Numbered from the stretch's first letter, positions 4,877 through 24,278 are shown. The stretch: DNA of 55,869 nt from Anaerolineales bacterium (GCA_041624375.1 JBFJVD010000002.1:1-55869), one strand, 5' to 3'. The notes: generated from the letters alone by a model not told the origin. Made by a program: numbers and translations.

Positions 4877-5803
4877 CTAGGCGGGACCTGGCGGATGGGC
4901 ATCGGCGTGCGGCGGCCGGACGCCTTGCGGATCGACATCCAGCACGAAGGTTCGGGCGGCCAGCCCTGCCCGAGCGAAGCCGGCTTCCAGGGCTTCCGCG
5001 ATCGCTGGATGACCGGTGGGAGCGAAGGCGACGACGCCAGGCCCGGCGCCGGAGAGGGTGGCCGCGGCGGCGCCGGCAGCGAGTGCCGCCGCCACCGCTT
5101 CCGGGTAGCCCGGAATGTGCACGGCACGGTGCCGTTCGTGGAGCCGGTCTTTCATCACGTGTGCCAGAAGCTCGTAATCGCCGGATCGCAGGGCTTCTAC
5201 CGTCAGCAGGCTGCGTCCCAGATTGAATACGGCATCCTCCAGCGGAACACGGGCTGGCAGTGCCCGGCGCATCTCCGCCGTCGCGAGCGCCAATTCCGGC
5301 ACGGCGACCGCCACGCGCAGCGGCGGGGTTTCGATCCGCCGCGCCACTGGCGAGTTTTCGTCAGGGGCCACCGCCACCAGACCGCCGAGTAGCGCGGCCG
5401 CTGCATTGTCGGCGTGCCCTTCGAGCCCGAAGGCCAGCCTCAGCAATCGAGACGTGGTGAACGGCTCGGTGAGCAGCATGTTCGCAGCTGCGAGACCGCC
5501 AACGATCGCCGCAGCCGAGGAGCCGAGTCCGGAGGCAAGCGGGATGGCGTTGGCTGCCCGCAGCCGTAGGCCCGCTGGTTGTATGTCTGCGGCTTCGAAC
5601 AACCGCAGCGCGGCCTTCAACCCAAGGTGTTCACCGTCTACCGGCAAGGTCGCCGCGCCCTCGCCTTCGACCGCTGCCTGAAACCCACCGGCGGCGAACT
5701 CGAGCTCGACGCGGTTGTGGAGCGAGAGCGCCAGCGCGAGGCTGTCGAAGCCAGGCCCTAGATTCGCTGTCGAGGCAGGGACGAGCACGGCGGCGCGCTT
5801 CAT
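4877..5803 (-). CDS. thrB: Homoserine kinase
   Basis: VPASTANLGPGFD, GHMP motif IPLASGLGSSAAA, EGHADN, LSGAGP; overlaps thrC stop. Confidence 0.95.
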   Translation of the reverse strand: MKRAAVLVPASTANLGPGFDSLALALSLHNRVELEFAAGGFQAAVEGEGAATLPVDGEHLGLKAALRLFEAADIQPAGLRLRAANAIPLASGLGSSAAAIVGGLAAANMLLTEPFTTSRLLRLAFGLEGHADNAAAALLGGLVAVAPDENSPVARRIETPPLRVAVAVPELALATAEMRRALPARVPLEDAVFNLGRSLLTVEALRSGDYELLAHVMKDRLHERHRAVHIPGYPEAVAAALAAGAAAATLSGAGPGVVAFAPTGHPAIAEALEAGFARAGLAARTFVLDVDPQGVRPPHADAHPPGPA

Positions 5804-15382: not shown

Positions 15383-16471
15383 TCACCTGTTGGCGGTGCC
15401 CTGGCGGGCTGCATTCCACAATGTGGCCAGCTGATCGAGGGGCAGCTCATGGGCCACCCGCCCCTGCTTCCCCTTGAGGGTTTCGGCTGCAGTAAGCGAG
15501 TTCAGAATCGCCTCCTCGGTGGCCTCGGCGGCCGCTTCGAAGAGGCTGTCCAGTGCGCCGTGTGGCAGCATCTCGAGCCGGAGCAGCGCTCCGGCAGTGC
15601 CGGAGGCCAGCCGGTTGCCGGTCGAGAATGCGAGGAATAGGTCGCCGCTGCTGTTGTGGCCCAGGCCGCCAGCCCTCGCCAGACCGACTGTTGCCCGTCG
15701 CGCCAGCCGGCGGCACTGCAATGGGATCAGGGGCGCATCGGTGGCCAGCACGACGAGGATCGAACCGGCGCCGGGCGTTTGTGCCTGCGGCGTCGGCACC
15801 ACCTGTGCATCGATCAACTGGCCGATAGGAACCCCATCCAACCGCAATTGGTGACGCAGGCCATAGTTGGCCTGGACGAGCGCGCCGAGATGGTACGTTG
15901 CGCCCAGGAGCTCCATGTGACGCGATGCGGTGCCAATCCCGCCCTTAAACTCGTGGCAGATAGTGCCCGTACCGCCGCCGACGTTGCCTTCCGCCACCGG
16001 GCCCGGGCTTGCCGCTGCCATGGCCGAGTCGAGGTGCTCGGCACCTAGGTGGAAGGCCTCAATGTCGTTCAGCCAGCCATCATAAGTCTCGGCCACCACC
16101 GGCAGGTCCCACGCCTGGGCGATCCCGGCCCGGTGGGCGTAGGCGACCAGGGCATCGCGCACCATCCCGACCTGGTGGGTGTTTGTGAGCGCGATCGGTG
16201 AGGTGAGCAGGCCGGCCTCTTCCAACCAGGCCAACCCGGTCATTTCGCCGTTGCCGTTAAAGATATGAAAGCCGGCCGGCAGGTGCTGCTGCCAGATCGC
16301 TCCTTCTTCCGGCACGATCACGGTGACCCCGGTGCGGGCAACCCTCGGTTCATCGTAGATCAGCGTGGTGTGCCCCACCCAAACCCCCGGAACATCAGTG
16401 ATTGCGTTCTGTGGGCCGGGTGGGAGACGTCCGATCGAGATTCCCAGATCTCGAAGGCGAGCGCGGCTCAT
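15383..16471 (-). CDS. dmpA: P1/S58 family aminopeptidase (DmpA-like)
   Basis: NAITDVPGVWVGH, RTGVTVI, NGNGEMTG, EGNVGGGTG, autocleavage G|SI, NSSGD; GGAGG RBS before ATG 16471. Confidence 0.9.
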   Translation of the reverse strand: MSRARLRDLGISIGRLPPGPQNAITDVPGVWVGHTTLIYDEPRVARTGVTVIVPEEGAIWQQHLPAGFHIFNGNGEMTGLAWLEEAGLLTSPIALTNTHQVGMVRDALVAYAHRAGIAQAWDLPVVAETYDGWLNDIEAFHLGAEHLDSAMAAASPGPVAEGNVGGGTGTICHEFKGGIGTASRHMELLGATYHLGALVQANYGLRHQLRLDGVPIGQLIDAQVVPTPQAQTPGAGSILVVLATDAPLIPLQCRRLARRATVGLARAGGLGHNSSGDLFLAFSTGNRLASGTAGALLRLEMLPHGALDSLFEAAAEATEEAILNSLTAAETLKGKQGRVAHELPLDQLATLWNAARQGTANR

Positions 16472-16519
16472 TGAGCTGCCTCCTCTCATCTGGTGGGCGG
16501 CACATCTTCGGCGGGTAAA

Positions 16520-17803
16520 TTAACTCGAGCGGGCCAAACCTACACCGGCCAGCACCCGCAGCGCGGCGGCGAGCAGCAGCACATTGCGCAGACCGAGACC
16601 CACCGCCAGCAGCGGGCCAAGCAGCGATCCGGCAAGGATCCCCAGGTTGAGGACAAGGTTGTGAAGCGCCATGTGCGCGGGGGCATCCTCCGGCGGCACC
16701 CGATCCATAAGCTGGTGTGTGAGCCCGACGTTGGCGACAGCCCACACAGCGCCGCCCAGCGCGCTGGCGATCAGGTAGAGCGCGGGGCCATCCGCCAGTG
16801 CGGTCAGCAAGGGAAACTGGCCATAGAGCAGCGCGCCAAGCACGAGAACACGCCGCTGGCCCCAGCGCGCAGCCAGCTGCTCGCTGGAGAGCGATATGAG
16901 CAGCATGCTGGAAAAGAAGAGCCCGTTGCCGATGCTGATGGTCCATTCGCTGAGACCCAATTCTCGGACAAAGAGAAGCGGGAATAGCGGAATCGGGAGG
17001 AACTGAAAGAAGTAGAAGAAGAAGTACGCGCCCATCAGGCGCCCGAAATCGCGGCGGATCAGGGACGGACGGAGCAGGGCTCCGGGTTGGGCGCGCGTAA
17101 GGAATCGCAATCCCGTCGTCGGCCGCATGGCATCGAAGACCCGCATCAGGCCGGGGCGGGCCGCGTCTCCGATGGGCTGGCTGTGGCGCTCCGGGCTGTC
17201 CGCAGCGAGCCGCATCTGGCCCAGCATCCAGCTGCTGAGCGCAGCGCCGGCGGCGCCGATCGTGAAGACCAGCTGATAGTTCAGTGGGTAGGGCAGCCGA
17301 ATGAGCAGCTGGCCGCAGCCGAGCGTGGTGAGCGTTGTCACGACCGCCAGCAGCGCGTTGCGCTGGCCGACCACCCGCGCCCTCCGTGCTGCCGGGACGG
17401 CATCGGCGAACAAGGCATTGAAGGCGATCGCCAGCACCGTGCCGGGCAGGGACATGACCAGCACCAATAGGACCAGCGCCTCCGGCTGTGCTGCCGGGGC
17501 GATCAGCCAGGGCAGCGGAATGAGCAGCAGATAAGCCAGCCGGTGCCAAACGGACGACCAGAAGGTGGAATGCACCAACGACCGTCCAGCGAGCATGCGC
17601 CCCGCAGGAAGCGATAGGGCCAGCTGGACCGCTGCGGGACCGGCCGTGAGCAGTCCGATCTCAAAGGCCGTCGCGCCGAGCTGGGTGGCGAAGATGGTCA
17701 GAAACGCGAGCGTGCTGCCGGCGAGCAGGCCATAGGCGGCGACGTCCGCGTAGAGAAGGCGCAGGTTGCGTTCAATGCGTTGCGAGTTCGCTGTGAGGGT
17801 CAT
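16520..17803 (-). CDS. MFS transporter
   Basis: About 12 hydrophobic segments in two halves separated by a hydrophilic loop; start chosen at MTLTANS. Confidence 0.82.
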   Translation of the reverse strand: MTLTANSQRIERNLRLLYADVAAYGLLAGSTLAFLTIFATQLGATAFEIGLLTAGPAAVQLALSLPAGRMLAGRSLVHSTFWSSVWHRLAYLLLIPLPWLIAPAAQPEALVLLVLVMSLPGTVLAIAFNALFADAVPAARRARVVGQRNALLAVVTTLTTLGCGQLLIRLPYPLNYQLVFTIGAAGAALSSWMLGQMRLAADSPERHSQPIGDAARPGLMRVFDAMRPTTGLRFLTRAQPGALLRPSLIRRDFGRLMGAYFFFYFFQFLPIPLFPLLFVRELGLSEWTISIGNGLFFSSMLLISLSSEQLAARWGQRRVLVLGALLYGQFPLLTALADGPALYLIASALGGAVWAVANVGLTHQLMDRVPPEDAPAHMALHNLVLNLGILAGSLLGPLLAVGLGLRNVLLLAAALRVLAGVGLARSS

Positions 17804-17873
17804 CGAGCGGCCGGGAAGAATGGAGCTGCGGTGTCGATCGATTGCGGCTTGGGCTGAGGTTATGCGGCCGCCG

Positions 17874-20800
17874 TCAAGCGGTCTCGCCATTGAGCGCCTG
17901 GCGTACCAGCCGGGCCAGCGTCTCCGAATTGAGCGGCTTCTGCACCCAGACCACCTGCTCGCGGTCGAGCAACATGCGCGTGTTCCGACCGAGAGGGTAG
18001 CCGGTCATCAGGATCATGCGCAGCTCCGGATAGCGCTCCTTGAGCTGATGGTAGAGGTCCACGCCACCGAGCTCGGGCATCACCATGTCGCTGATCACGA
18101 TGTCGATTTCCTCGGGCTGGGCTTCGAAGACCTTGAGCGCTTGCGCACCGTTCTCAGCCATGAGGACATCGTAGTTCAGCGACTGGAGAATCTCGCAGAC
18201 CGCCTCGCGCGTTGCGGGCTCGTCTTCCACCACAAGGATGGTCTCGCGTCCGCCGCGCAGCGGCGCGGGCCGCTCCCAGCTTCGCACCTCTTCGGCAACG
18301 GCAATGTCGAGCGCGGGCAGGTAGAGCACAAACGTGGTGCCTTCGCCGACGCGGCTGACAACGTCGATATAACCGTTGTGCTGCTTGATGATGCCATAGA
18401 CCTGCGCCAGGCCGAGACCGGTTCCCTGCCCCGGGGCTTTGGTGGTGAAGAAGGGTTCAAAGATGTGGGGCAGATCCTCAGGTGTGATGCCTTGCCCGCT
18501 ATCGGTAATCTTGATCCGGACCCAGTCGCCCTTCGGCATCCCGCGGAAGGGGGATGTCTGGCCCGGGCGCACCCGCCAGCGGTCGACCTCGAAGCGGAGC
18601 CAACCGCCTTCCCGCATCGCATCGCGGGAGTTCAAGGCCAGGTTCATGAAGACCTGCTGGAAACGGGCCGGGTCCACCCGGATCATCTCTCCATCACCGG
18701 CATACTCCAAGTCGAGCTGGATGCTTTCCGGCAGCGTGCGCTCGAGCAGTTTCATGAACTCCTTGAGGAACGGGATCAGATCGATCGGGATCATGTCCAT
18801 GATCGTCTGACGGCCGAAGTCCAGGATCTGGCGGGTGAGGGTGGTGGCCCGGTGGGCCTGTTCAATCACCACCGAGAGCCGTTCGCTGCCCTTCGGCGTG
18901 AGGTCCGGCTCATCGAGCAGCATCTCGCTGAAGAGGATGATGGCGTTCATAATGTTGTTGAAGTCGTGGGCAATGCCGGCTGCAAGCTGGCCGACCGCGG
19001 CCAGGCGGTCCTGCTGGTGGACGCGGTTCTGGACCCGGCGGACTTCGGTGACGTCGCGCAGAAGGACCGTCCAACCCGGGTTCTCTTCTTCACCGGACAT
19101 CGAAGTGGCCAGCACTTCGTAGGTCCGCTCCTCACCGTTCACGATGCGTAGTTCGTGTGGCAGGCCGTCCGATCGGGTTTCGAGCAAGCCGCCGATCGGG
19201 CGCCCGCCGAGCACGCTGAGCTTCTCACCTTCCTCGACCCCAGCCAGCAGATCCAGGTAGCGCTTGGCGGTGGGGTTGGCATGGATGATCCGCAGGTCGC
19301 CATCGAGGGTGACGATGCCCTCCTGAACGGTCTCGAGGATCAGCTCCAGCTGCCTTGCCTGGCGCCGGATCTGCTCGATCAGCTTCAGGCGCTCGACGGC
19401 GCCGCCGAGCTGCGAACCGATGGCGTCGGCGAGCGCAACCTCTCCTTCGCTCCAGGCGCGGGGGAAACCGGAAGCCAGGATGAGGCCGCCCATCGTCCGA
19501 CCTTCGCGCCGCAGCGGGACGGCAAGGGAGGCGCGCACGCCAAGATCGAGCGGCACGGCCACATGCGCCGGCTCGGGCGAGCGCGCCAGCCGCTGCTCCC
19601 AATCCTGCACAATGAGCGGGCTGGTGAGGTTGCGGGTCCCGATGAAGACCCTGGAAATCGGTGTCTCGCCGTAGAGTTCCGGCAGGCCGCTGTGCTCGAC
19701 CAGCGGCGGGTTGTCCAGCCAGGCAACGCCGCGTTCAAGACCGAGCGCGTTGAGGGTCTCACGCAGGGCTACTTTGAGCAGGTCGGTGAGCTCGGGCGCA
19801 GCTGCAGCGGCGGAGATGACGGCGTTGAGGGCGCTTTGCTGTGCCGCCCGTTGGCGCGCTTCCTCAAACAGATCGGCGTTGGCCAGGGCCAGCGCGACCT
19901 GATTGGCGAGTGCCGAAAGCAGATCAATGTCGTGGCGCGGATAGAAGTCGTCGGGATCCCGACGCCCGAAGAGCCAGATGCCGATCGGCTGCTCGCGCAC
20001 TTCGAGCGGGATCGCCACCCTCACCCAGGCAAGCGGAGATTGGTCCCGGTCCGGTTCGGGGCGGTAGCTGCCCGCCTGCTCCAGCAGTGCGTCGAGCACA
20101 CCGTGCTCCTGCGGCAGGCTGGTAGGCTCGACTCCTTGATGGTAGATCACCGTTGCCGGTTGGCCGCGGGTGAAGACGGCCAGCGCGGATTCACGGATCA
20201 GCAGGCTCGGGGCGACCGCATCACGCAGCAGCTGGACCAGTGCCTGGCGATCGGCGACGGTTGGGATTTGGGCGGCGAAGTAGCGCAGCAGCTCGTCGGG
20301 GTTGTGGCGCGTGCCGTATGCCAGCCGGTCGAAGGCGCGCTGGTAGGCGCTGCGCAGCACGGGCGCAGCGGCGACGAACACCGCCGAGAGCACCAGGCCA
20401 AGGAAGATCGATTCGGTTGAGGCGCGAATCCAGCGGATGCCGAGCACGTAGACGAGCGTGAAGGCGGTCACATAGACCAGCAGGAAGCTGTAGTTGCTCA
20501 ACAGGCGGCTGATGCGGAATTCCAGGTTGCCGGACTGCCGCCGGTAGAGGGCATAGGTGTAGAACAGCGGCATCGCTGGCAAGGACAAGGCAGAGATGGC
20601 GCTCAGCCAGAAGGATGCCAACCGAGCACCAGTGAGGGTGGGGACGGCCCACAAGATCACCCCCGGGCCAAACGCCAGGGCAATGCCTACCAGCAGCCAG
20701 CGCGTCGCCAGCCGTTCGGCCGGGGAACCGCGCAGCCAGCGGTAGAAGAGCAGCCCCAGGCTCGCACCGACGCCAACCAGCAGTCCAAGCAGATAGAGGG

Positions 20801-21536
20801 ACGGGGGGAGGACTTGAAACACCTCAAGCCCGGTTAGGACTCCGGCGATCGCATACAGGCTGATAAATGGCCAGCGCATCTGCTGGCGGATCAGTGGTGA
20901 AGGAACGATCAGGTGCAGGTGGACGTAGGCGGCAACCATCGCCCAGGTGACGGCGCCGAGCACGATCGACGAATAGGCGATGCGGGTAAAAGACACACTC
21001 CCGGCCACCAGCCAGACCGCGGTGAGATAGAAGACCAGGATGAGAGCCAGCCAGCGGTCGTCGCGCGGCCGGAGGAAGAGCAGCACTGCTGTTCCGGCGA
21101 GCCAGAACGGCAGGAAGATCAACGTGCCTGAAAACCTGAGCAGCCGGTCATCGAGCGTCACCGGTGGCATGGTCCATTCGGCTTCCACTGTGCGACCGGC
21201 GCGAAGCAAGCGGAGCGGGAGACGGTCTCCCGGCTGGAAACCTTCGAATGGAACGACGACCAAATTGCCTTCGTAGGTTTCTTTGGTGAGGTCCCCGAGC
21301 TGGAGGAGCACATCCCCGGGCAGCACGCGGCCGGCGACCGCCTCACACCACAGCTCGCGCCCCTGGCAATTGCTGAGCGCATACACGCGCAGGGTTTCGT
21401 CGTGGTCGATTCCGGGGTAGGGCGCGGCGTAGGTGTAGCTGAGCGTGAAGGTGAGGCATACGCCCAACACGATCAGTGAGAGCAGGCCAAGCAGCCACTC
21501 TCTCTCGCGGAACACTCGCTTGTCCGAGTCGGCCAT
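17874..21536 (-). CDS. Membrane hybrid sensor histidine kinase (TM, PDZ-like, ~9 TM, GAF, GAF, PAS, HisKA, HATPase, REC); ComP-like input
   Basis: PDZ-like loop ([11 protein letters not shown]...[13 protein letters not shown]), ~10 TM helices, two GAF-type segments, PAS ([16 protein letters not shown]), H-box AHDFNN, N box [11 protein letters not shown] boxes DSGQG/GTGLGL, REC (VVEDE, SDMVMP, QKP). Confidence 0.92.
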
Positions 21537-21544
21537 GACCAGCC

Positions 21545-22489
21545 TTATGCGAGCAACTCTTCGGGCACCTCCGCCCCGACCTCTTCGAGCAGGTGCACCA
21601 AGGGACGGAGCTGCTGAACCAGTAACTCTAGCATGCTCTCCCGCCGGGGCAAGTCCAGCGAATCGATCTGCGCTGCCGCCTGGCGATGGCGCAGGAGCAG
21701 GTGGTAGGCGCAGTAGCTCACCGCGCCGCCGCGAATCAGGATCTGCTGGGCCTCCGCCAGGCGCGCCGGATCGTCAACCTGCGCGGCCAGCTCTGCGAAG
21801 CGCTCCTGATCCGTATGGTCGGCAGTGAGCGCGTAGCGCAACAGCAGGTTGTTGCCCGGGTGGCGCCAATCGGGGTTGGCCGGCGATTCGAAGGCATCGA
21901 GCAAATCGTCGTGGAGCTGGACCACCTCACCGACAAGAATTCCGATGTCGTACAGGCCGTCGGCAACCTCCGGCGCAGCGCCGCCGAGCAGGGCTCCGAG
22001 CTGCAGGGCCGCGCCATAGAACGGGGTGCTCTTGGCACGGACCACCGCCCAGTACTCCTCCTCGGTGGCCGGATGCTGCGCGTCGAGATGCTGGCCGCGA
22101 GCGGTCTCGAGCAGCATGGCGCTCAACTGTCTGATCGCCTCCGCGCGGCGTTCCGCGGGAACATCGGCGCGTGCCAGGGCATGGAAGGCGGCCGACTGCA
22201 GCCCAAGCGCCAGGTTGGCTGTCGGCCCGACTCCCTGGCGAACATGTTCGCCGCGCGGATCCTCGTCGAGCATGTCATCGACGAAGATGATGCTGATCTG
22301 GCTGAGAAGGATCGCCGCTGCAGCGGGTAGCGCCTGTTCTGCTTCAGCGCCGACGGCCTCACAGGCGGCCAGTGGAAGCGACCAGTCGATGCTCCCGCCA
22401 GCAGCCTCAAGCAGCTCGTTCAGTTCTGGCCAGCTGCTGACCTCTGGCAGGTCTTGCAGATAGGCTTTAACGTCGGCGATCTCGCTCAT
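21545..22489 (-). CDS. Isoprenyl-synthase-fold prenyltransferase, ComQ-like (putative peptide Trp prenyltransferase)
   Basis: DDMLD, GQHLD, KS, QLHDDLLD; lacks the N-terminal GGKRxRP and the post-FARM RRG IPP-binding motifs of chain-elongating synthases; lies between the small Trp-tailed peptide and the sensor kinase. Confidence 0.8.
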   Translation of the reverse strand: MSEIADVKAYLQDLPEVSSWPELNELLEAAGGSIDWSLPLAACEAVGAEAEQALPAAAAILLSQISIIFVDDMLDEDPRGEHVRQGVGPTANLALGLQSAAFHALARADVPAERRAEAIRQLSAMLLETARGQHLDAQHPATEEEYWAVVRAKSTPFYGAALQLGALLGGAAPEVADGLYDIGILVGEVVQLHDDLLDAFESPANPDWRHPGNNLLLRYALTADHTDQERFAELAAQVDDPARLAEAQQILIRGGAVSYCAYHLLLRHRQAAAQIDSLDLPRRESMLELLVQQLRPLVHLLEEVGAEVPEELLA

Positions 22490-22537
22490 GCGTCCCTGCT
22501 CGAATACTCCCTGAACCGGCGATCTTCGATTAAATGA

Positions 22538-22594
22538 CGGCGCGCCGCGTATCGGTCCACGGAATAGATTTCCATGGAGCGCTGCAGCGCGCCG
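22538..22594 (-). terminator. GC-rich stem-loop between the peptide gene and the prenyltransferase (possible partial terminator or mRNA stabiliser)
   Basis: Minus strand CGGCGCGCTGC...TCCATGGAA-ATCTA-TTCCGTGGA...GCGGCGCGCCG; no strong U-tract. Confidence 0.45.
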
Positions 22595-22647
22595 GCAACT
22601 CAGAAGATAAAGATGTCAGTTGCGCACAGGCAACAAGTATCGCTCGA

Positions 22648-22815
22648 CTAGCGCCCCCACCACCATGCCGCAAGCGCGTAGGCCGTCGTCGCAGCGGTCA
22701 CGTCCTCAGGCCTCTCGATCCTCGTCAGCTTGCGCAGTGCCTCTAGCCAGGCTTCTTCCTTGCGCTCAGAAGTAATCAACTTGCTGAACTCATGGATCGT
22801 CAGTGCTGTATCCAT
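22648..22815 (-). CDS. 55-aa ComX-like pheromone/RiPP precursor (not in the ORF track)
   Basis: GGAGG 7 nt before ATG; translates to MDTALTIHEFSKLITSERKEEAWLEALRKLTRIERPEDVTAATTAYALAAWWWGR*; Trp at positions -3 to -5 from the C-terminus; directly upstream of the prenyltransferase. Confidence 0.8.
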   Translation of the reverse strand: MDTALTIHEFSKLITSERKEEAWLEALRKLTRIERPEDVTAATTAYALAAWWWGR

Positions 22816-23004
22816 TTGTTCCCCTCCGGCAGTGAGTTACTTTCTACGCGACAGCGTGCATCGGCTGCAGACCGAACCTACCCCTGGAGCCTCTGCGTGA
22901 CGATTACCTCCTCTCTTCTGAGTTAGGGCAGACACAGAAGATTGCCCGCCATTAAATAGGAACAGCCTGTGCGTTTGTGCTGTCGCGCTCCCTCAATAGT
23001 GTCC

Positions 23005-23069
23005 AGTATAGAGAATTCTTGCAGAAAAATAAATAGCCACATATGTCGGTTTTAACGTGACAAACGACA
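23005..23069 (-). promoter_or_regulatory. Putative promoter and upstream inverted repeat for the peptide operon
   Basis: Minus strand -10 TATACT (23005-23010) with a poor -35; AT-rich region; TGTCG-N16-CGACA inverted repeat at 23044-23069. Confidence 0.5.
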
Positions 23070-23111
23070 GGGGTAATGGTTTTCTAACCTCGGGATAACG
23101 TCCGCGCAGGT

Positions 23112-24278
23112 TTACAGGGGTTCGGTGCGCGTCAGCCGGCTCTCGATTCCGCGCTCCGAGAGCGCGGAAAAGAAGCGCCCGGCGTCCACCGCCTGCTCCG
23201 GTGGCCAGACTCCTGGCTGCTCCAGCGAGCGGTCCGCCAGCCAGCGGCCGACGACCGCCGGCGGGCTGGCCACCATCAGCTTGCCGCCCGACATTCCCCA
23301 CCGTTCATGCGGCCAGGCGGTGGTATCCATCCGCAGGCGTTGCGCTTTCCCATTCGAGCCGCCGTCGACCACGGTGACCACATCCTTGAACCCCAGCGTC
23401 TTCGGCGGCAGCTGGGCAGCCGGCGACTGGCGCAGGAGGGCGATCAGCACCTCGCGCGGGGCGACCTGAACGCCGCCCACCTCGATCGGATCCCGGCGCG
23501 CGAAACCCAATTCGGCCAGGAACTGGAGTTTGCGGAGGGCCGGCTCGGCGTAGCCGAAAAAGGTGATTTTGAAGAAGCACTCGCGGATGCCCTTCTCGGC
23601 AAAGGTCAGTGGGATGGTGGCGACCTCGGAGTGCAGGCTGAGGTGGGTCTTGGCGTGCCCGATCGGCTCGGGGAAATCGAAGAACTCCTCCTCGCCCAAT
23701 GGGGGCGCCTCGACGAAGCGGCCCTCGCGAAAGACCATCGCCGGCTGGCTGATCTCATCCAGGATGGTGTCCACCGAATAGGCCCAGGACAACGACTCGC
23801 CCTCGTCGAGCGTGCTGCCATTGTAGATGCGGACCGACTCGATCGTGTCGAGCATGGCGCCCAGGTGGCCGGCCTGCACGTTGGCCACGCCGGGACAGCT
23901 CCCCAGACCCAGCAGCGCCGTCACGCCGGCCTCGCGGAACGCCTCGCCCAGCTCAAGCTGCTCTCGGGTGGTGTGGAACAAGCCGCCCAGATCAAGGTAC
24001 GGGACCCGAGCCCGCAGGCACCCTTGCATGACGTCGAGGTTGAAGTAGTACTGCACGCTGTTCAGGCAGGCGTCTGCGCCGGCGAGCACCGCATCCAGCG
24101 ATTGCGGATCCGTGACGTCGACCTGCGCGGGAGCAGCCCCGCCCCCGAGACGTTCGGCCGCTCGATGGGCGCCGGCTTCATCGAGATCTGCGACGATGAC
24201 TTCTCCGACATCTTCAACCAGGTCCTGTGCGATGGCCGAACCGATGATCCCCGCTCCGCCTAGCACGACGATCCGCAT
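23112..24278 (-). CDS. Saccharopine dehydrogenase-family oxidoreductase
   Basis: Rossmann VLGGAGIIG, YLDLGG, GLGSCPGVAN, HSEVATIP. Confidence 0.88.
   Translation of the reverse strand: MRIVVLGGAGIIGSAIAQDLVEDVGEVIVADLDEAGAHRAAERLGGGAAPAQVDVTDPQSLDAVLAGADACLNSVQYYFNLDVMQGCLRARVPYLDLGGLFHTTREQLELGEAFREAGVTALLGLGSCPGVANVQAGHLGAMLDTIESVRIYNGSTLDEGESLSWAYSVDTILDEISQPAMVFREGRFVEAPPLGEEEFFDFPEPIGHAKTHLSLHSEVATIPLTFAEKGIRECFFKITFFGYAEPALRKLQFLAELGFARRDPIEVGGVQVAPREVLIALLRQSPAAQLPPKTLGFKDVVTVVDGGSNGKAQRLRMDTTAWPHERWGMSGGKLMVASPPAVVGRWLADRSLEQPGVWPPEQAVDAGRFFSALSERGIESRLTRTEPL

Follow-up and report, generated by a model that had tools for sequence, protein, structure and literature searches.

We analyzed a 55,869-nucleotide stretch of DNA from an Anaerolineales bacterium (GCA_041624375.1, JBFJVD010000002.1:1-55869), hereafter the window, and focused on three genes that lie in the order X-Q-P on its minus strand. 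The original prediction of a co-oriented trio, consisting of a 55-aa Trp-tailed open reading frame (ORF) with a ribosome-binding site, an isoprenyl-diphosphate-synthase (IPPS)-fold enzyme and a sensor kinase, was borne out, including the 8 nt that separate the end of the Q gene from the start of the P gene. The following features were located:

22821..22827, minus strand: Shine-Dalgarno-like GGAGGGG, 5 nt upstream of the ATG of X, read directly
22648..22815, minus strand: X, gene for a 55-aa precursor peptide, stop codon included, from the ORF and its homologues
22699..22815, minus strand: leader of X, residues 1–39, from the alignment of 62 peptides (A3), the leader/core boundary being an estimate
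22651..22698, minus strand: variable core of X, residues 40–55 (TAATTAYALAAWWWGR), with Trp51–53, from the alignment of 62 peptides
[quoted passage not shown]
22259..22279, minus strand: first Asp-rich motif of Q, D71-D72-M-L-D75-E-D77 (D71 and D75 in 36/36 family members, D72 and D77 in 35/36)
21896..21919, minus strand: second Asp-rich motif of Q, Q191-x-x-D194-D195-L-L-D198 (D194, D195 and D198 in 36/36, Q191 in 35/36)
21701..21739, minus strand: family-specific helix of Q, residues 251–263 (L..CGAVSYCAYH), the modelled leader-docking surface
17874..21536, minus strand: P, 1,220-aa hybrid sensor histidine kinase, from the ORF and domain matches
20337..21536, minus strand: input module of P, residues 1–400, with TM1, an extracytoplasmic PDZ fold and approximately nine more membrane helices (AF2)
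21144..21425, minus strand: PDZ-like domain, P residues 38–131
17874..20336, minus strand: cytoplasmic part of P, with GAF (492–553 and 582–715), PAS (729–834), HisKA (848–909), HATPase_c (955–1075) and receiver (1100–1211) domains

The ORF of X starts in the context GGAGGGG-N5-ATG and its product ends in AAWWWGR, which places the tryptophans at positions –5 to –3 from the C terminus. P is followed by genes for an MFS protein and an S58 peptidase.

The search for a small Trp-containing ORF beside homologues of the enzyme had been set beforehand as a check, and we carried it out on 80 loci with Q homologues at 41–60% identity. Homologues of X adjoined the Q homologue in 76 loci, always on the strand of Q, and the remaining four loci have just 18–490 nt of sequence upstream of Q. 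The positive loci contained 87 X-like ORFs, 78 upstream and nine downstream of Q at a median distance of 164 nt, and some loci held two to three peptide genes. Among 5.8 billion database proteins, 65 matched X at E ≤ 0.001, and a search of Pfam and NCBIfam matched it to no family. In the alignment of 62 peptides, a conserved leader, with its conserved columns at positions 7, 10, 23 and 27 of the window peptide and an IE(K/R)PED-like end, is followed by a variable core with near-invariant Trp; Trp occupies each of columns 51 and 53 in 90% or more of the peptides. The pattern W-x-x-W was present in 80 of 88 X peptides and in 155 of 6,443 control ORFs of 45–90 aa, while W.W alone was found in two of the 88 and at least one Trp within the last 30 residues in 87. 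The Trp motif is followed by 0–21 residues across the family and by 8–21 in the Acidobacteriota loci, which means that not all family members end in a free Trp motif.

More than 120 homologues of Q share 49–59% identity, and the AF2 model of the enzyme has a pLDDT of 92.7. The invariant residues specific to the family include Trp36 and Trp208 and, in the helix at 251–263, L251, G255 and Y259, with A256, V257 and S258 nearly invariant. The predicted pairing of enzyme and peptide was supported by a model of the complex that passed its controls (ipSAE of 0.77, 0.77 and 0.76, best of three controls 0.00). In calibration, 58 of 80 solved complexes and two of 110 mismatched pairs attained the ipSAE mark, counts that apply only roughly here because the complex was run on custom alignments. 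The runs share at least 77% of the contacts, with a partner pLDDT of at least 71. X residues 4–46 contact Q in the model, and the contacts of lowest error join Q residues 252–262 with X residues 7, 10, 27, 30, 31 and 33. In X, the invariant F10 and the residues at the conserved columns 7 and 27 are predicted to contact the invariant Y219 and Y259 and the near-invariant S258 of Q, and X residues 36–46 are predicted to contact Q residues 193–200, beside the second Asp-rich motif. Residues 47–55 are absent from the low-error contacts: the leader is placed confidently, the core is not. With a conserved leader, a variable core and an enzyme modelled to bind the leader, X has the appearance of a RiPP precursor.

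For P, a multi-TM sensor with an extracellular PDZ-like loop had been proposed, and the AF2 model of the input module (pLDDT 91.3) agrees, showing about ten helices and placing the PDZ fold in the first extracytoplasmic loop. No Pfam family matched the module. Using tblastn, we found it beside Q in 72 of the 80 loci, directly downstream on the same strand in 60 and upstream and divergent in 10. The output domains vary: among 49 sensors, HATPase_c occurs in 41, HisKA_3 in nine and, in place of the kinase, HD_5 in seven. A fixed input combined with swappable outputs is the expected look of a ligand-binding module. One subgroup of the loci, about 14, combines HisKA_3 kinases of approximately 750–840 aa with a REC+GerE regulator directly after Q. 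After Q, the sensor and their antisense shadows, the next shared gene cluster is a response regulator (18/80 loci), and our search of the 80 loci for another common enzyme family found none.

What is established computationally is the presence, conservation and linkage of the genes, together with the folds, the motifs and a controlled model of leader docking. X-Q-P is a three-gene unit conserved in Chloroflexota and the diderm Acidobacteriota that looks distantly related to the ComQXP pheromone system of Bacillus, and it is a real and apparently undescribed variant of the ComQXP(A)-type systems. We consider it fairly probable that the unit serves as a ComQXP-type peptide-pheromone module, the interpretation originally offered for the locus, which gains support from the linkage of X and Q, the co-occurrence of the sensor, its ComP architecture, the subgroup with a ComA-type regulator and the controlled complex model.

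The comparisons with ComQ and ComP, as well as those with PalQ and StheQ below, are by description and not by sequence. ComX is an adjacent precursor of 52–73 aa with a Trp within its last 5–10 residues (PMC4008528), and ComP crosses the membrane ten times, its first extracellular loop containing a PDZ fold (PMC9620489). X is likewise an adjacent precursor, of 55 aa, with Trp near the C terminus, Q shares with ComQ the IPPS fold with the first Asp-rich motif, and the input of P is modelled with about ten membrane helices and a PDZ domain in the first outside loop. The second motif is the pseudo-motif NDxxx in ComQ but DDLxD in all 36 members of the Q family, and the single Trp of ComX contrasts with the conserved W-x-x-W of the X cores. 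The Pfam ComX model (PF05952) matches none of the 62 X peptides at E ≤ 1, and the leader family differs. The gene order is Q-X-P-A in Bacillus and X-Q-P in the window and 60 loci; in 10 loci P precedes X-Q and is encoded on the other strand, and the arrangement P(-) X Q A(-) also occurs. ComP ends in HisKA_3 (PF07730) and HATPase_c, whereas the window P has HisKA (PF00512) and a receiver instead; its series of GAF, GAF, PAS, HisKA and receiver domains, and the HD_5 ends of some relatives, are unlike ComP. No ComA-type REC + LuxR/GerE regulator is adjacent in the window, whereas in the subgroup of about 14 loci it directly follows Q, and these relatives, with a HisKA_3 kinase of ComP size and the adjacent regulator, resemble ComQXPA. 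The X-Q-P locus contains no dedicated protease or exporter, and to our knowledge neither does ComQXPA. The hosts are Chloroflexota and Acidobacteriota rather than Firmicutes, whereas the accessible text of a 2014 census reports comQXPA-like loci in "none outside the phylum Firmicutes" (PMC4008528).

In the proposed mechanism, X would be a ribosomal precursor whose helical leader (approximately residues 1–39) docks on the family-specific C-terminal surface of Q. The enzyme, which keeps the allylic-diphosphate and Mg2+ machinery but lacks the canonical IPP-binding GKRxRP, would prenylate the indole of one Trp of the W-x(1,2)-W core; the final Trp, conserved throughout the family (W53 in the window peptide), would be the likeliest acceptor. 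The leader would then be removed and the lipidated C-terminal peptide would exit the cell via proteins encoded outside the locus. P may sense the peptide via its ComP-like input module, setting the autophosphorylation of the hybrid kinase. We infer the prenylation, its site and chain length, the processing and export and the sensing by P.

A prenylated X might instead not be mainly a signal but, for example, a lipopeptide with a membrane-active, antimicrobial, surfactant or anchoring role, with the sensor regulating the genes or responding to membrane stress rather than serving as a specific receptor of the peptide. The pairing of X and Q is the only one directly modelled, and the core of X showed no co-variation with the PDZ domain (Spearman –0.0006, p = 0.997, for 31 non-independent pairs). 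One locus (L052), covered for 6 kb on both sides, has X, Q and the regulator but no sensor, and Trp prenylation has been employed to make membrane-active antimicrobial peptides more active (PMC13290415). However, the input of the sensor has the ComP architecture and accompanies Q in 72 of the 80 loci while the output domain varies. Furthermore, a search of the 80 loci found no conserved immunity, transporter or protease gene, and the MFS and S58 genes flanking the window kinase are present in none of the 80. We consider such a lipopeptide unlikely, though deserving of some weight.

Q could also be a working isoprenoid enzyme, such as an elongating synthase, a heteromer subunit or a terpene-forming enzyme, with X as its small regulatory or scaffold partner rather than its substrate and the sensor controlling lipid or terpenoid synthesis. 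With the canonical trans-IPPS (GGPP, octaprenyl and others) Q shares the fold, both Asp-rich motifs, GQxxD, the Lys of KT and the Gln of FQ. The structure search yielded only ordinary GGPP and long-chain synthases, the best Foldseek matches being GGPP synthases (TM 0.76–0.81), and the best sequence matches are of the same kinds. Both Asp-rich motifs are intact, and a true DDxxD in the second motif is a feature of chain-elongating synthases. At the first place of this motif, ComQ and StheQ have Asn where the Q family has D194 in 36/36, and a preprint reports the change from N to D as deleterious in both, with activity losses of approximately 90% for ComQ RO-E-2 and 98% for StheQ (10.64898/2026.08.29.745113). 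As a precedent for peptide prenylation, the characterized trans-IDS-like peptide prenyltransferases are all described as acting on Trp and as having in common a Gln immediately ahead of the second Asp-rich motif (PMC13290415), the place taken in Q by Q191, which is found in 35 of the 36 family members. Against a role in isoprenoid synthesis, all 36 members of the Q family have gaps in the columns of GKRxRP and of the GK of the final motif, 33 of the 36 keep only one R of RRG, and Q has PANPDW where synthases have GKxxxxD. GKRxRP, RRG and GKxxxxDxxxxKKT are the IPP-binding basic motifs of the chain-elongating trans-IPPS. The genome has a canonical synthase paralogue on contig C16, scoring 209 bits with PF00348 against the 73.8 of Q, that retains GKRIRP, RRG and GKPAGDDLIRRKKT; BLAST aligns its GKRIRP opposite GGSIDW of Q. 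The adjoining gene matches the Pfam family FMN_dh, and we take it to be a type-2 IPP isomerase. Judged by sequence, Q is distinct from this housekeeping synthase. Unlike the canonical enzymes, Q is paired with a peptide gene (76/80 loci), present in two to three copies in some loci, and the conserved leader, variable tail and near-invariant Trp of the peptide suggest the anatomy of a substrate. The Q family was found in six of the 401 sampled genomes of the phylum, in keeping with an accessory trait rather than core lipid synthesis. A working isoprenoid enzyme appears very unlikely.

Finally, short ORFs are plentiful in the window region (71 ORFs of 40 aa or longer overlap 8.5 kb) and a promoter-like or terminator-like site was looked for at the window locus and not found, but the idea of X as a chance open frame in GC-rich DNA beside an unrelated enzyme and kinase is almost certainly wrong, being ruled out by the comparative data: amino-acid conservation in 76 of 80 loci, in several phyla and at the same position and strand, the 65 database matches and the complex score of 0.77 against 0.00 for the controls.

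Returning to the pheromone module, we regard it as a rather unlikely, speculative extension that the family represents a large, unrecognized sister lineage of ComQXPA outside Firmicutes, with its own chemistry and wiring. On this reading, the near-universal W-x-x-W combined with a true DDxxD would point to a modification other than the single Trp C3 prenylation-cyclization of ComQ; both Trp might be prenylated, for example, or form a prenyl-bridged pair. The lipidated tail would be recognized by the ComP-like PDZ/10-TM receptor, and the HD_5 (HD-GYP-type) receptor fusions of some species would let a peptide pheromone act directly on cyclic-di-GMP turnover with no phosphorelay.

The original prediction left open whether the family is already described. 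We found no publication describing the X-Q-P family, although a ComQ homologue of another Chloroflexota lineage, StheQ/StheX of Sphaerobacter thermophilus, was published in an August 2026 preprint (10.64898/2026.08.29.745113). As reported there, StheX has 69 aa, with Trp second and third from the end, its N-terminal part is well ordered and its tail flexible, and StheQ binds full-length StheX and farnesylates the penultimate Trp in vitro (10.64898/2026.08.29.745113). StheQ, as described there, is like Q a Chloroflexota IPPS-fold enzyme adjoining a Trp-tailed peptide, and the two share the spacings K-38-Q-3-(N/D) and D/x/x/x/D/x/D, both general to the fold. By the same text, stheX is downstream of stheQ whereas X is mostly upstream of Q, and StheQ has DExxD and the pseudo-motif NDxxD in contrast to the DDMLDED and true DDLLD of Q; the accessible description mentions no kinase, whereas X-Q adjoins P. 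Set beside StheQ by description only, the Q family could be the same, a sister or an independent family.

PalP-PalX-PalQ of Paenibacillus alvei is a cluster of a histidine kinase, a precursor and a Trp prenyltransferase of the isoprenoid-synthase superfamily, in which the leader of PalX boosts the modification and an AlphaFold complex guided the discovery (PMC10853753). X-Q-P resembles it as a three-gene cluster of a kinase, a precursor and a putative Trp prenyltransferase. PalX carries a leader of the NHLP type and its Trp is strictly C-terminal, whereas the Trp of X is followed by 0–21 residues and none of the 62 X peptides significantly matched the NHLP or Nif11 models (one Nif11 match at E 0.13). 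PalQ is annotated as a terpene synthase and forms a network cluster of its own, whereas Q scores as PF00348.

The original prediction placed three co-oriented genes in this part of the window: a 55-aa ORF with a GGAGG ribosome-binding site, an isoprenyl-synthase-fold enzyme and, 8 nt later, a sensor kinase. All three were recovered on the minus strand, and we refer to them as X, Q and P.

Genes of the module and the two genes that follow it
22648..22815, minus strand: X, 55-aa ORF with GGAGGGG 5 nt ahead of the ATG and the C-terminal end AAWWWGR
21545..22489, minus strand: Q, 314 aa, starting 158 nt downstream of X, PF00348 polyprenyl_synt
17874..21536, minus strand: P, 1220 aa, starting 8 nt past the Q stop
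16520-17890, minus strand: MFS transporter, with a 17-nt overlap at the kinase stop
15383-16489, minus strand: Peptidase_S58 gene, next after the MFS gene

The 55-aa ORF alone would not count, since these 8.5 kb are overlapped by 71 ORFs of 40 aa or more. We therefore turned to comparison and fetched 80 genomic loci, each with a Q homologue. Reading the upstream 700 nt across the loci revealed a recurring ORF of 47-70 aa with a recognizable leader (M.IEEF..LL.S.....LL.AL..LT.IE.PED) and a Trp-rich end. Using all six-frame stop-to-stop ORFs of the 80 loci, we ran two series of iterated profile searches, one starting from the window peptide and the other from a peptide of a divergent subgroup, and both converged on a single family of 88 ORFs. 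All but one of these sit in 76 of the 80 loci, every one on the strand of Q, with 78 ORFs upstream and 9 downstream of the enzyme gene and a median gap of 164 nt. The four loci without an X match have only 18, 271, 283 and 490 nt of sequence ahead of Q. The small Trp-tailed ORFs that the original prediction proposed to look for beside homologous enzymes thus exist in 76 of the 80 loci, and at least one Trp is present in 87 of the 88 peptides.

In 80 of the 88 peptides a W-x-x-W motif lies within the last 30 residues. In the Acidobacteriota loci the motif is internal, with 8-21 residues following it. Only two peptides, that of the window and that of its closest relative (locus L005), have W-x-W alone. 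As a control, the remaining ORFs of 45-90 aa in this DNA were examined, and 155 of the 6443 had W-x-x-W. When a database of 5.8 billion proteins was searched with a profile of 62 aligned peptides, 65 matched at E <= 0.001 (best 1.9e-13), and any name on these matches was always "hypothetical protein." Pfam and NCBIfam models, including ComX, NHLP and Nif11, gave no meaningful match to the X peptides.

Several loci carry more than one peptide gene. Two or three per locus were seen in Acidobacteriota records (L053, L054, L057, L065, L069, L075, L076, L081 and L082), where one peptide gene precedes Q and another separates Q from the sensor; of the three in L054, two precede Q. Locus L033 contains a tandem precursor pair upstream of Q (5230-5729), whose leaders differ and whose cores both end SWSGWSW. 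The sole Trp-less peptide of the family (L064, 1612-1770) ends early, at …CQPCRDIERQE, and may be truncated or frameshifted.

Beyond X, Q and the sensor, no gene family was common to more than 18 of the 80 loci. It was tempting to assign the MFS transporter and the S58 peptidase of the window as the exporter and leader peptidase of the module, but tblastn found homologues of them in none of the 80 loci. As the same was true of three other neighboring genes, all five were left out of the module. A scan of 21400-23200 on both strands found no promoters or terminators. The segment upstream of X (22900-23110) is AT-rich in GC-rich surroundings and has no match to the sigma-70 consensus; any promoter there would be of a type other than the one scanned for. 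Twelve DNA runs from four studies contain all or part of the stretch, and no RNA runs are listed; samples with the contig are marine and sediment ones.

The enzyme Q belongs weakly but clearly to PF00348 (1.6e-20, 73.8 bits). GGPP-type and long-chain synthases head its NCBIfam and PDB matches, and all of these fall well short of the family cut-offs. Its AlphaFold model (pLDDT 92.7) has the trans-isoprenyl diphosphate synthase fold and was aligned by Foldseek to GGPP synthases with TM scores of 0.76-0.81. The family is tight, with more than 120 database proteins at 49-59% identity over 79-100% of the length (most at least 95%), which carry no other names than "polyprenyl synthetase family protein" and "geranylgeranyl pyrophosphate synthase"; the Atlas look-alikes, taken as leads only, are generic polyprenyl synthetase clusters. 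Its distribution is sporadic: when the phylum was sampled evenly, members were found at E <= 1e-40 in 6 of 401 genomes, and in 4 of 322 high-quality genomes.

Among 36 aligned members, the first Asp-rich motif (DDMLDED) retains D71 and D75 in all and D72 and D77 in 35, and a true second motif, D194-D195-L-x-D198, is present in every sequence. Lys153 is kept in all and Gln191 in 35 members, and GQxxD has its Gln and Asp in all and its Gly in 34. The canonical GKRxRP is missing from all 36 sequences, BLAST aligning GKRIRP of the canonical synthase with GGSIDW of Q; RRG is cut to one Arg, and PANPDW with an invariant Trp stands in place of GKxxxxD. In established enzymology, IPP is bound by the residues lost from these three motifs, and the allylic diphosphate and Mg2+ by those that Q retains. 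The genome's canonical synthase lies elsewhere (locus L002, contig C16 of G000, 290-2337), scores 209 bits on PF00348 and has all IPP-binding motifs intact; it directly follows, with a 4-nt overlap, a gene matching FMN_dh, which we take to be a type-2 IPP isomerase. Q is therefore an extra, specialized copy. Two further synthase fragments are found at contig ends. Before the first motif of Q, the small Ser66 and Ile67 at positions -5 and -4 hint, speculatively, at a roomy prenyl pocket.

We predicted the complex of Q and X with both alignments as input and with three controls. The pair reached ipSAE values of 0.77, 0.77 and 0.76, the best of the three controls 0.00. The calibration mark had been passed by 58 of 80 solved complexes and by 2 of 110 mismatched pairs, counts that hold only roughly for our runs as these used our own alignments. 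Contact agreement between the runs was at least 77% and partner pLDDT at least 71. In the model, X residues 4-46 sit on Q residues 218-225, 245-266 and 292-309, with contacts between conserved positions at Y259 (X positions 7 and 10), S258 (positions 10, 27, 30 and 31) and Y219 (position 7). Residues 36-46 of X contact Q 193-200, next to the second Asp-rich motif. The core itself (residues 47-55) was not confidently placed and is not set in the active site, so the model supports docking of the leader on Q and not catalysis. Binding has been published for PalQ-PalX (PMC10853753) and StheQ-StheX (10.64898/2026.08.29.745113), and the score may partly reflect likeness to these pairs.

The predicted sensor, with about 10 TM segments and a PDZ-like loop, agrees with a structure model that shows a PDZ/10-TM input module. 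The N-terminal ~430 residues of P have no Pfam match and are followed by GAF, GAF, PAS, HisKA, HATPase_c and receiver domains. With tblastn of residues 1-430, the module was found adjoining Q in 72 of the 80 loci, 60 times directly downstream on the same strand, 10 times upstream on the opposite strand and twice in other arrangements. Of the eight loci without it, four have 0-77 nt of sequence downstream, three belong to the upstream-sensor subgroup and have less than 800 nt upstream, and the eighth is L052. The Atlas look-alikes of the module, again only leads, are "hypothetical protein" clusters with partial PDZ annotation. Locus L052, with 6 kb on both sides, has X, Q and a regulator and no sensor, and the sensor of L027 (3791-5587) is only 599 aa long with no recognizable output domain; both come from one MAG record (MFD01213.bin.1.46) and may represent a split or shared receptor.

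The constant input is joined to differing outputs: 49 full-length sensors contained HATPase_c (41), HisKA (32), HisKA_3 (9), HD_5/HD (7) and receiver (7) domains. In the seven HD_5 sensors, confirmed one by one and all downstream of Q (L012, L013, L016, L019, L035, L051 and L060), the same PDZ/10-TM input ends in HD_5/HD replacing the histidine kinase, with one to three GAF domains in six and no GAF match in L012. We take HD_5 to be of the HD-GYP type, and sensors of this form may couple peptide sensing directly to cyclic-di-GMP turnover. The divergent subgroup has sensors of 749-838 aa with HATPase_c (a weak HisKA_3 match in two of the seven scanned) and a REC+GerE regulator, A, directly after Q, and is a full P, X, Q and A set.

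In the sensor-module alignment (residues 206-212 and 336-344 of P), invariant polar residues lie within the membrane bundle: H208 in LHLHL..P, Y228, Y326, and the E339 and R341 of LEFRANR. They may form part of a ligand site, or may point to catalysis by the bundle. Some close pairs of systems looked suggestive of co-variation between the peptide core and the PDZ domain. Across all 31 nonindependent pairs that share 68% or more identity in Q, no such correlation was found (Spearman -0.0006, p = 0.997), nor after regression on TM and Q identity (-0.05, p = 0.80). In 29 of these pairs identity was lower in the PDZ domain than in the TM part.

We propose that X would be a leader-guided substrate of Q, and that Q would alkylate a core Trp with an allylic diphosphate, most probably at the last Trp of the motif, a site favored because it is kept even in single-Trp peptides (L015, L032, L056 and L058). 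Leader removal and release of the lipidated tail would be performed by functions not encoded in the locus, and the ComP-like module of P would detect the tail, possibly via the PDZ domain. C-terminal peptides are the usual ligands of such domains. The module would, by analogy, work like ComQXP.

For a long time, pheromones with a prenylated tryptophan were regarded as a Firmicutes trait only. A 2014 census states of comQXPA-like loci "none outside the phylum Firmicutes" (PMC4008528), and a 2022 survey reports for Chloroflexi the kinase-regulator pair only (PMC8895600). The kind of system is already known from ComQXPA, from PalP-PalX-PalQ (PMC10853753) and from StheQ/StheX of Sphaerobacter thermophilus, a member of Chloroflexota whose enzyme-peptide pair was characterized in a preprint of August 2026 (10.64898/2026.08.29.745113). 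Unlike ComQXPA, the loci lack the pseudo second motif, the ComX family and the ComQXPA gene order, and in the window HisKA_3 and ComA are absent too. At the first place of the second motif, the invariant Asp of the Q family corresponds to Asn in ComQ and StheQ, and a change of N to D there is described as nearly abolishing the activity of both (10.64898/2026.08.29.745113). This difference speaks against the proposal, as do the unplaced core, the internal Trp motif and multiple peptide genes of the Acidobacteriota loci, and the null result on co-variation. The Gln and first motif Asp that lie near the indole NH in PalQ, the ChrPC P-domain and Ord1, according to a review (PMC13290415), fit Q191 and D194 of Q. 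The Q family is apparently undescribed; it may share its descent with the ComQ lineage or derive separately from canonical synthases. In the full-text literature outside subscription journals and supplements, we found no description of the X peptide family, of its W-x-x-W core or of HD_5 outputs joined to ComP-like modules.

Outside Firmicutes, peptide, enzyme and ComP-like receptor are conserved together as a whole family, ranging over Anaerolineae, Caldilineae, Ardenticatenaceae and Thermoanaerobaculia, and form a concrete, testable candidate for cell-cell signaling in poorly cultured, often filamentous environmental bacteria. The family offers new candidate leader-dependent Trp prenyltransferases for peptide lipidation. 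Its PDZ-bearing receptor module, which is joined to a kinase in some loci and to HD_5 in others, provides a natural experiment in wiring a peptide signal to differing responses. The record titles of the 80 loci name Anaerolineales and Anaerolineae, Ardenticatenaceae and Promineifilaceae, Caldilineaceae, Thermoanaerobaculia and Holophagales, one Zixiibacteriota and one "Promethearchaeota"; records labelled Litorilinea aerophila (Caldilineaceae) and Candidatus Amarolinea aalborgensis are among the carriers. The locus labelled as a Promethearchaeota archaeon MAG (L020) has an X-Q module of bacterial type, followed downstream by a convergent sensor, and its contig is probably mis-binned.
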